From UHGV virus genome UHGV-0342252: 12,818 bases of DNA, one strand, 5' to 3'. The notes beneath the pieces are model-generated. The model was not told where the DNA came from. It was given only the letters and a program-made list of their open reading frames with translations, and ran no database searches. This document shows, in pieces, positions 4,984 through 6,565 of the stretch; within the stretch, counting starts at the first letter, position 1; each line of letters begins with the position of its first letter. This stretch comes from a virus. A program made the translations under genes and the position numbers.

Positions 4984-5199
4984 TTAAGCGGCTTTGTGTT
5001 CCGGCGGGAACAAGCCATCTAGCGTTGTCTTGCTCCCCAATTTATTCAGCGCCTTTACCAGGCGACGGCACGACTCTAAATCTGGAGTCCGGATACCTGA
5101 CTCGTAGTTAGCTAAGCGGGACTGGTTCCAGCCACACGCGCCTGCTAACGCAGATTGAGTGATGCCAAGCTTTTTCCGTTCGTTGGCAATGTTGTTCAT
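4984..5199 (-). CDS. cro: Cro-like HTH repressor (71 aa), not lambda Cro type
   Basis: First gene downstream of pR, divergent from cI; SD AAGGA before the ATG. HTH (LAGACGWNQSRLANYESGIRTP) is very similar to the cI HTH (LAELCGWASQSRIGNYESGTRSV), as expected for proteins sharing operators. Confidence 0.75.
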   Translation of the reverse strand: MNNIANERKKLGITQSALAGACGWNQSRLANYESGIRTPDLESCRRLVKALNKLGSKTTLDGLFPPEHKAA

Positions 5200-5303
5200 A
5201 GGTTTCCTTAAGAGCTAGTTCACTCAGTCTTTATTAAACACATATTGTGATTGATAGTCAACACAAATCGTGTAAAGCCTTAAACCACGGAATGTGATAT
5301 AAA
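5200..5303. promoter_or_regulatory. oR / pR / pRM control region with three operator-like sites
   Basis: Three sites with a CAC-N5-GTG core (ACACATATTGTGAT 5238..5251; ACACAAATCGTGTA 5261..5274; CCACGGAATGTGAT 5284..5297) spaced about 23 bp apart. pR on the minus strand: -35 TTGACT (5261..5256), 17-bp spacer, -10 TTTAAT (5238..5233). A weak pRM -10 candidate (GATATA near 5296..5301) would give a near-leaderless cI transcript. Confidence 0.7.
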
Positions 5304-5945
5304 ATGCGCATGAACAGAACAGAAACTATCGCCGCGCGTATCAAGCGATTACGGGAAGATAAAGGGCTTTCACAGAAGGCTCTGGCGGAGCTTTGCGGCT
5401 GGGCTTCACAATCTCGGATCGGCAACTATGAATCAGGAACCAGAAGCGTTAGTGTTGATGACGCAGAGGTAATAGCTAAAGCTTTGGGCGTCGCTCCGGC
5501 AGAACTGCTTTTTGGCGACAACTATCAGGGACAATACAAGCCAGGGGAAAAGTTTCCGTTGATTAGCTGGGTTAGCGCAGGTGCATGGAGTGAGGCCGTA
5601 GAGCCGTACAACCCTCAGGCAGTGGATGAGTGGTATGAATCAGATTGTCACGTTGTCGGTGACGCCTTCTGGCTCAGGGTTCAGGGCGACTCAATGACAG
5701 CTCCTACCGGCCTTAGCGTTCCTGAGGGTATGCTGGTTCTGTTCGACACTGGAAAGGAAGCCGTTAATGGAAGCCTGGTAGTTGCGAAGCTGACAGATGC
5801 TAATGAAGCCACGTTCAAGAAGCTAATCATTGATGGCGGTAACAAATACCTGAAAGGGCTTAACCCTGCCTATCCGTTGATCCCAATCGACGGCAACTGC
5901 AAGATAATCGGCGTAGCAGTGCAGATGATGATGAAATTCTCCTGA
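5304..5945 (+). CDS. cI: CI-type prophage repressor with LexA-like S24 autopeptidase domain (213 aa)
   Basis: N-terminal HTH; C-terminal domain with Ala-Gly cleavage site (SWVSAGAW), Ser (QGDSMTAP) and Lys (VVAKL) resembles the P22 C2 / lambda CI family. Alternative start at ATG 5310. Confidence 0.9.
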   Translation: MRMNRTETIAARIKRLREDKGLSQKALAELCGWASQSRIGNYESGTRSVSVDDAEVIAKALGVAPAELLFGDNYQGQYKPGEKFPLISWVSAGAWSEAVEPYNPQAVDEWYESDCHVVGDAFWLRVQGDSMTAPTGLSVPEGMLVLFDTGKEAVNGSLVVAKLTDANEATFKKLIIDGGNKYLKGLNPAYPLIPIDGNCKIIGVAVQMMMKFS

Positions 5946-6032: not shown

Positions 6033-6095
6033 ACACGTGTTGTGATAAAAACAATCACATTTCGTGTTGACAGCACGAACACAATTTGTGATTAT
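6033..6095 (+). promoter_or_regulatory. oL / pL: three operator-like sites and the leftward early promoter
   Basis: -35 TTGACA (6067..6072), 17-bp spacer, -10 GATTAT (6090..6095). Three sites with the same CAC-N5-GTG core as oR (6033..6046, 6055..6068, 6079..6092) overlap the promoter elements. Confidence 0.75.
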
Positions 6096-6134: not shown

Positions 6135-6165
6135 CGCTCTTAAAAATTAAGCCCTGAAGAAGGGC
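6135..6165 (+). promoter_or_regulatory. nutL (boxA + boxB)
   Basis: CGCTCTTAA (6135..6143) and GCCCTGAAGAAGGGC (6151..6165), matching lambda nutL as recalled. Confidence 0.85.
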
Positions 6166-6433
6166 AGCATTCAAAGCAGAAGGCTTTGGGGTGTGGTGAA
6201 GCCAGCTAGTCACTGGCAAGTGCTTACCTACTGTTGAGCGGTGAAGCGCTCCCAACGCTAGCAATAGCGTGGACGAGATGGGGAGCCGCGGGCGATAAGG
6301 CCGCCATAACGCGCACGTTGTCGCATGGAAAAATCGCTGGGGTGCCGGTTATACCCCTCCGAATGAGACTCAACAAGCTGGAGCTAGACTACCAGCCACC
6401 ACACCACCAAAGCTAACTGACAGGAGAATGACC

Positions 6434-6565
6434 ATGAATAACGAAGCGCTTAAAGAAATGATTGCGAAACTCCTTGAGGACGCACGCCGAATTCAAGAAG
6501 TGGAGCCAAACGCAGGGACACAATCACGTATTGATGAAGCGATGAAGTTGCTCAAAGGAGAATAA
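6434..6565 (+). CDS. small ORF (43 aa) immediately upstream of N
   Basis: SD AGGAG (6422..6426) 7 nt before the ATG; stop TAA lies between the SD and ATG of N. Product MNNEALKEMIAKLLEDARRIQEVEPNAGTQSRIDEAMKLLKGE, predicted helical. Below the ORF-track size cutoff. Confidence 0.45.
   Translation: MNNEALKEMIAKLLEDARRIQEVEPNAGTQSRIDEAMKLLKGE

Follow-up and report, generated by a model that had tools for sequence, protein, structure and literature searches.

A divergent apical segment within the conserved stem of the N leader of a lambdoid prophage

The leader of the N gene of bacteriophage lambda is a textbook example of how an antitermination complex and RNase III control translation. What is to be made, then, of an N leader that carries the lambda sequence at both ends and encloses between them a middle part unrelated to that of lambda? 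Such a leader lies in the virus genome UHGV-0342252, of which a stretch of 12,818 nucleotides (the window) was analysed here. The window contains the early region of a lambdoid prophage whose nearest relatives overall are mEp043, Sf101 and CurroJimenez_Bas106. Its early leftward transcript runs on the + strand, where the gene for a cI-like repressor (5304-5945) is followed by a terminator, oL/pL, the leader, an open reading frame (ORF) of 43 amino acids and N. A preliminary description of the locus had drawn attention to the interval 6166-6433, which begins immediately behind boxB, reaches to the following start codon and encloses the feature correctly.

We aligned the leader with those of lambda, Sf6 and HK544. 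The 5' end of the transcript was placed at A6102 through identity to lambda and through the annotation of the pL 5' nucleotide in HK544. From this position to 6195 the window is identical to lambda, and this block takes in the start of the pL transcript, boxA, boxB and the 5' arm of a stem; a second identical block extends from C6400 to T6429 and holds the 3' arm of the stem and the Shine-Dalgarno sequence (Table 1). The lambda-like ends of the preliminary description are thus borne out by pairwise alignment, and so is its statement that the middle is different and longer: 204 nt stand in place of the 94 nt of lambda, and local alignment detected no similarity between the two. The same description had called the segment G+C-rich. 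Its G+C content is 57.8%, where the 5' leader and N each have 50% and the window as a whole has 47.6%, so the excess is real, but it is modest; the hairpin of lambda itself has 54%. A boxA-like sequence, GCTCTTAA, was also seen on the - strand at 5208-5215, just upstream of a cro-like ORF (4984-5199, - strand); by chance alone the window would be expected to hold about one such match.

Table 1. Features of the early leftward leader and its surroundings, in window coordinates.
Feature	Position	Strand	Basis or remark
pL-type early leftward promoter (TTGACA, 17 nt, GATTAT)	6067..6095	+	promoter scan
nutL boxA, CGCTCTTA	6135-6142	+	same as lambda nutL
nutL boxB, GCCCTGAAGAAGGGC	6151-6165	+	same as lambda nutL
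Local hairpin CAAAGC-AGAAG-GCUUUG	6172..6188	+	read from sequence; competes with the foot of the long stem
5' arm of the long-range stem, GGCUUUGG GGUGUGGUG, boxC-like	6182..6198	+	pairs with 6397-6414
Mosaic module (both stem arms and top), 229 nt, exchanged as a unit	6184..6412	+	228/229 identity with P22-type leaders
Divergent segment, 'type B' apical top, 204 nt, 57.8% G+C	6196..6399	+	alignment; comparison of tops
First hairpin inside top B, GCCAG-CUAGUCA-CUGGC, two bases beyond the 5' arm, where a tRNA would have its D arm	6201..6217	+	minimum free energy and centroid structures
60-codon TTG ORF, judged non-coding	6234..6416	+	no Shine-Dalgarno upstream; no families; variant pattern
Last hairpin inside top B, GCUGG-AGCUAGACUA-CCAGC, directly next to the 3' arm, where a tRNA would have its T arm	6377..6396	+	folding
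3' arm of the long-range stem, CACCACACC A CCAAAGCU, bulged A6406	6397..6414	+	folding; inverted repeat
Shine-Dalgarno AGGAG, as in the lambda N leader	6422-6426	+	serves the 43-aa ORF here, not N directly
43-aa ORF (MNNEALKEMIAK...), phrog_32391, family of unknown function	6434..6565	+	E = 3.7e-34, alignment from the second ATG
Antiterminator N, 108 aa	6567..6893	+	Pfam N36, E = 3.3e-25; phrog_271

The conserved ends of the leader form a 14-nt inverted repeat. In the partition function 6182-6189 pairs with 6407-6414 and 6190-6198 with 6397-6405, leaving A6406 bulged, with pairing probabilities of 0.99-1.00. Two short helices under this stem (6177-6179/6417-6419 and 6168-6172/6426-6430) place the foot of boxB next to the ribosome-binding site. 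The boxB hairpin is present in the minimum free energy (MFE) structure and its loop is unpaired with a probability of 1.0. Lambda has the same fold, with identical arms and a long-range stem that links the nutL region to the ribosome-binding site. Folding of the whole leader against shuffled sequences gave z = -4.67 (z = -3.53 for the lambda leader), and this value is due to conserved parts such as the arms and not to the divergent middle.

In lambda the position of the RNase III site is reportedly known, and in the regulatory model said to apply there an RNase III-sensitive hairpin governs the translation of N. To judge by its sequence, the conserved-arm stem of the window is the hairpin that RNase III processes in lambda, and by analogy it would be cleaved by RNase III in the window's phage too. 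The lambda N gene leader is named as an RNase III target in a passage of PMC5371410 that cites Steege et al. 1987. At the bottom of the long stem there is a local hairpin that shares the CUUUGG sequence with it and that lies at the same position in all related loci. CAAAG precedes CUUUGG within 22 nt in 143 of the 144 hairpins compared, with every type of top and flank, even where the flanks are unrelated in all else. The long-range stem prevails over the local hairpin at equilibrium; the local hairpin may guide co-transcriptional folding or may shield the 3' end of the nutL fragment after cleavage. Past the upper stem (6190-6409 in the window) the 3' strand reads CACCACACC-A-CCA, and in lambda it likewise reads CACACACC-A-CCA; the bulged A and CCA resemble the discriminator base and CCA end of a tRNA, possibly by chance.

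The window has the promoter and 5' end, the nutL site and the conserved-arm long-range stem that characterize lambda-type N leaders. Its ribosome-binding site does not serve N directly, for the 43-aa ORF comes first. This ORF, which lambda, Sf6 and HK544 lack, lies between the two copies of an 8-bp direct repeat, AGGAGAAT (6422-6429 and 6556-6563), and the ATG of N is found behind the second copy, 1 nt past the stop codon of the ORF. With this arrangement the controls of the N leader would act first on the 43-aa ORF, and N would be translationally coupled to it. The same ORF occurs behind the tops of types C and G at other loci, a 42-aa or a 67-aa ORF fills the slot elsewhere, and most of the other type B leaders lead straight into N.

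The middle of the leader proved to be one of a series. When viral contigs were scanned for the 5' arm, at least 12 mutually unrelated tops, with 51-204 nt between the arms, were found to be enclosed by the same arms in lambdoid phages. The lambda type (A) has 94 nt, that of the window (B) 204 nt, type C 108 nt and type D 119 nt, and there are rarer types; pairwise local alignment among the tops found no similarity. The arms are almost invariant, even in leaders with quite different boxB sequences and N-like proteins (lambda-type, P22-type and several other N-like genes), and the tops assort independently of the element that comes after the ribosome-binding site, be it N or the 43-aa, 42-aa or 67-aa ORF. 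Of 5,426 complete E. coli genomes, 530 had top A, 499 top C, 175 the D family and 60 top B. A scan of genome contigs gave mostly the exact lambda N leader, on short, low-coverage contigs from about 22 assemblies of unrelated taxa (Marinifilum, Nocardioides, Limosilactobacillus, Vibrio and others), and the other hits were chance matches. The exact copies are lambda DNA contamination of public assemblies.

The two arms and the top are exchanged as a unit. The module that they form recurs in 13 P22-type leaders, which have the boxB sequence GCGCUGACAAAGCGC and a gp24-like N of 127 aa, and the sequence on either side of it is unrelated to that of the window. The bottom base pair of the stem, G-C in the window, is A-U in the P22-type leaders. 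Copies of type B with an identity of at least 98% were found in 19 phage records, among them Sf6, Sf101, HK446, HK544, HK633, mEp043, mEp213, vB_EcoP-720R6 and CurroJimenez, in the 60 E. coli genomes and in about 50 IMG/VR contigs. GenBank records of phages that carry it (Sf6, HK544, mEp213 and others) annotate no feature there except for one 'hypothetical protein', and searches of the literature gave no readable account of the type B variant in Sf6 or the HK phages. A homologue outside N leaders was not found among the phages, E. coli genomes or IMG/VR contigs, and all the matches to top B in a BLAST search of phages and E. coli genomes for distant relatives were 98-100% identical. Three candidate relatives were discarded: an apparent 92% variant was an indel-ridden metagenome read, a half-length match was a truncated prophage joint, and a kinship of types B and I by way of common 9-11-mers was lost on alignment.

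In the loci that bear type B the diversity per site is 0.005 in the top, 0.039 in the 99 nt upstream and 0.053 in N, so diversity in top B is lower than in its flanks by a factor of eight to ten. Among viral contigs top C behaves as B does, and top A is as diverse as its own flanks. The low diversity and the rarity of type B fit a young allele that has been set by recombination into old, diverse backgrounds. Strong purifying selection on the whole of top B would give the same pattern of diversity, which does not decide between the two readings. On balance, type B is probably a young allele; it is rare and has entered two or more N/nut systems that differ from each other.

The preliminary description had suggested that the middle of the leader may be a structured RNA or a processing element. 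This holds for the conserved ends, which pair with a probability of about 1; it does not hold for the middle. The check by RNA folding that had been proposed is answered by the whole leader and not by the top: folded alone (6200-6398), the top gave z = -0.41, with 64 of 200 dinucleotide shuffles as stable, and its reverse strand gave z = -0.56. The MFE structure of top B, with a frequency of 0.004, is not that of the centroid. Values of z near 0 were also obtained for tops A, C, D, F and G when folded alone. We compared 38 copies of type B and found nine distinct sequences with 12 variable sites and no compensatory pair, and several of the changes break predicted pairs, for example those of the hairpin 6339-6344/6352-6357. 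Because the copies are 98-100% identical and hardly vary, covariation is uninformative in type B. Tops of the lambda type vary at 19 of 96 columns, again without compensation, and their commonest variant disrupts the predicted apical hairpin of lambda. The diverged members of type I (four loci) and type K (three loci) have one and three compensatory pairs, respectively, in local hairpins, a hint that some tops keep local structure.

Searches with models of known RNAs gave a similar picture. With Rfam 15 there was no match at gathering thresholds in the whole window, and between 6000 and 6700 there were chance-level matches only at E up to 10. The Rfam tRNA and tmRNA models had no match at E up to 10, ARAGORN called nothing in the window or in 17 related loci, and the promoter and terminator scan found neither inside 6196-6399. 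A tmRNA reading, suggested by the bulged A and CCA after the stem and by the internal frame, had no support from the models and was dropped. Nothing in these results shows a structure or a job of its own for top B.

We consider that the segment is a tolerated passenger, a spacer top inside a conserved processing stem, and we would give this reading a probability of about 0.6. The working parts of the leader would then be the conserved ones. The nutL site would recruit N and the Nus factors, and the two arms would close a stem of about 17 bp that is continued to the helix joining the base of boxB with the ribosome-binding site. The 204 nt would be one allele of a freely replaceable top, and any length or sequence would be tolerated there because only closure of the stem matters. 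Closure is perhaps aided by an antitermination complex that keeps the 5' arm near the RNA exit channel, as has been proposed for boxC and the leader-trailer helix of 16S rRNA, and the tops would be traded between phages by recombination in the two conserved arms. The top itself would be neutral. Three observations speak against a passenger: the top is far less diverse than its flanks; type B has hairpins, with complementary loops, at the places of the D and T arms of type D; and type D, which occupies the same slot, is itself structured and conserved, which shows that functional cargo can be accommodated there.

That last observation introduces the strongest of the alternatives, in which the top is a non-coding RNA with a function of its own. 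RNase III would free this structured RNA of about 210 nt very early after infection or induction, in the way that pre-16S rRNA is set free from the boxC helix, and the RNA would act in trans, perhaps as a decoy, as a degenerate mimic of tRNA or against host defences. We regard this alternative as unlikely for type B; some support for it comes from other occupants of the slot. Type D belongs to an unannotated family of tRNA-like RNAs of about 130 nt that we define here and that fills the N-leader slot in some phages. Its covariance model was built from 11 members, and true members score 152-154 bits with it. The loci of the family comprise four N leaders (among them L057:1052-1198(-)), two sites between pR'/tR' and holin (in HK75, L257:1199-1333, and in vB_EcoP-611R6) and five in Skate/Akira-like Salmonella phages. 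Distant BLAST searches found the homologues of type D at other sites to be about 75% identical, and in Akira, a Skate-like Salmonella phage, the RNA is located beside a tRNA-Met gene. The family is not called by ARAGORN, Rfam or PGAP, and one record labels 58 nt of the RNA 'tRNA-Ser'.

In the cloverleaf of this family, an acceptor stem of 7 bp (UGUGGUG/CNCCACA) encloses a D arm, a long 'anticodon' arm whose loop, GUGAAnAUnCUAG, is conserved, a variable arm and a T arm. The T arm is canonical; in top D it is GCUGG-UUCGACU-CCAGC and abuts the 3' arm of the leader stem. In the alignment of the 11 members 90.5% of the cells are paired, against 29-47% with slid partners; seven pairs have changed on both sides, and the score of the cloverleaf was reached by none of 500 shuffles. 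With the cloverleaf supported in type D, it follows that in those phages the upper stem of the N leader is at the same time the acceptor stem of a tRNA-like RNA. Type H (L193:5146-5312 and L195:5365-5531(-)), whose arms are 139 nt apart, also ends beside the 3' arm in a canonical GGUUCGAUUCC T arm, UGUGG-UUCGAUU-CCACA. It scores 20 bits with the tRNA-like model (E 0.006), where a true tRNA at another locus scores 21 bits, and it had no match in the phage collection.

Type B shares some of these features. It has an acceptor-like arm, UGUGGUG/CACCACA, followed by AAGC, its first bases are GGUGAAGC as in type D, and its last hairpin has the T stem of type D, GCUGG/CCAGC; the first and last hairpins are placed alike in the two types, in the positions of the D and T arms. 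The loop of the first hairpin of top B contains UAGUC, which is complementary over 5 nt to GACUA in the loop of the last, as read from the sequence. The near invariance of type B amid variable flanks and its entry, intact, into two N systems also favour a functional cargo. Type B differs from type D in that it has no canonical T loop, no GG in a D loop and no variable arm, and its interior of 150 nt is unrelated. The tRNA-like model gave type B 11.4 and 9.7 bits (E 0.07 and 0.19), which is background, since an unrelated site in the window scored 9.6 bits. Type B is not a detectable member of the family; it could be a degenerate relative of type D, or the two could have their ends in common merely through recombination. 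The absence of extra folding stability, the ill-defined MFE structure and the substitutions that break pairs also count against a cargo, low diversity is expected of any young allele class, and no homologue is found outside N leaders. Known prophage sRNAs are located at the pR' moron site and not in the N leader; AgvB, AsxR and Pas were considered as matches and rejected on the grounds of their location.

In a second alternative, which we think quite doubtful, the top tunes N in cis: its length and fold would set the speed at which the stem closes, or RNase III cutting, and different tops would give different set-points for the autoregulation of N. The top does lie inside the element that reportedly controls N translation in lambda, the conservation of the CAAAG/CUUUGG hairpin suggests that the kinetics of closure matter, and a longer top delays synthesis of the 3' arm. 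Yet the same arms and the same N alleles are combined with tops ranging from 51 to 204 nt, which argues for tolerance and not for tuning, and the ribosome-binding site of the leader in the window serves the 43-aa ORF and not N directly.

A broader proposal can be made, and we offer it as an improbable one. The boxC-like stem of lambdoid N leaders might serve generally to excise cargo, as a leader-trailer helix on a small scale that is loaded by the N/Nus complex and cut by RNase III. The tops, the 204-nt one included, would then be early non-coding RNAs released from it, some of them tRNA-like (D and H), and type B would be a possible degenerate relative that acts on the host, for example against tRNA-targeting or other defences.

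That the segment encodes a small protein, in the 60-codon TTG ORF or in one of two ORFs of 50-53 codons on the - strand, is scarcely credible, even though the 60-codon frame is open and a 'hypothetical protein' has been called there in one phage record and a few genome annotations. The preliminary description had noted the TTG ORF and doubted that it is coding, and the doubt was well placed. The ORF starts at TTG without a Shine-Dalgarno sequence, and its size is unremarkable because the window contains 114 ORFs of at least 40 aa. None of the three ORFs of the segment matched Pfam or PHROG, and the promoter scan found no promoter for those on the - strand. A search of 5.8 billion proteins with the TTG ORF returned near-identical self matches only. 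Its variants among the 38 copies comprise about seven non-synonymous and two or three synonymous changes and two frameshifting indels. The ORF crosses the conserved 3' arm, and its end is set by the flank, giving 60 aa in the window and 81 aa in the P22-type context. On this evidence from sequence, the TTG ORF is most reasonably taken as non-coding.

We return, therefore, to the spacer top in a conserved stem and to how it compares with known systems. Relative to lambda, the type B variant is a real and largely ordinary form of a known element. The pL start, boxA and boxB of nutL, both stem arms and the Shine-Dalgarno sequence are identical and the architecture is the same; the window differs in its upper stem (GGUGUGGUG for GGUGUGUG in lambda), in the unrelated 204 nt that replace the 94-nt apical part and in the 43-aa ORF, just behind which N is translated. 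Compared with tmRNA and tRNA, the window has the paired 5' and 3' ends, the bulged A and then CCA after the upper stem, and a hairpin that abuts the 3' strand, but its stem has 9 bp and not 7 and it has neither a T loop nor a G3-U70 pair. A third parallel concerns the exchange of modules. Short conserved boundary sequences are said to occur at the mosaic joints of lambdoid phages, and the record of Sf6 annotates them as 'bsq'. As in that case, short conserved sequences lie exactly at the points of exchange between otherwise unrelated phages. The two boundaries in the window differ in being the strands of one RNA stem inside a leader, not intergenic sequences, and in being under functional selection as RNA as well.

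A further parallel to the architecture is found in ribosomal RNA. The boxC element of rrn operons, UCUGUGUGGG, lies in the 5' strand of the leader-trailer helix that is cleaved by RNase III (PMC10250234), and a Nus complex anchored at boxA is believed to deliver it to the complementary strand far downstream (PMC10250234, PMC8632103, PMC4807359). The 5' arm of the N leader resembles boxC, and a resemblance is all that we claim. In both systems a G/U-rich 5' strand (UCUGUGUGGG in rrn, GGGGUGUGGUG in the window) lies downstream of boxA and boxB, its pairing with a distant complement creates an RNase III substrate that brackets an arbitrary cargo, and a boxA-anchored complex of Nus factors is available to deliver the 5' strand. 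The systems differ in that the cargo of the window is 204 nt with no demonstrated function where that of rrn is 16S rRNA, and in that the element of the window is in an mRNA leader and controls translation, with N as a part of the complex. The more interesting part of our findings lies mostly outside the window, in an almost invariant stem with swappable tops, some of which are tRNA-like. Across lambdoid phages the only constant parts are nutL, the two arms and the ribosome-binding site, and the 51-204 nt between the arms are swapped wholesale. Such a pattern fits a hairpin that works by joining its own ends, and it links that hairpin to the boxC helix of rRNA. Should the tops prove to be more than filler, a variable non-coding payload, so far unannotated, would be present in the first RNA that these phages make.
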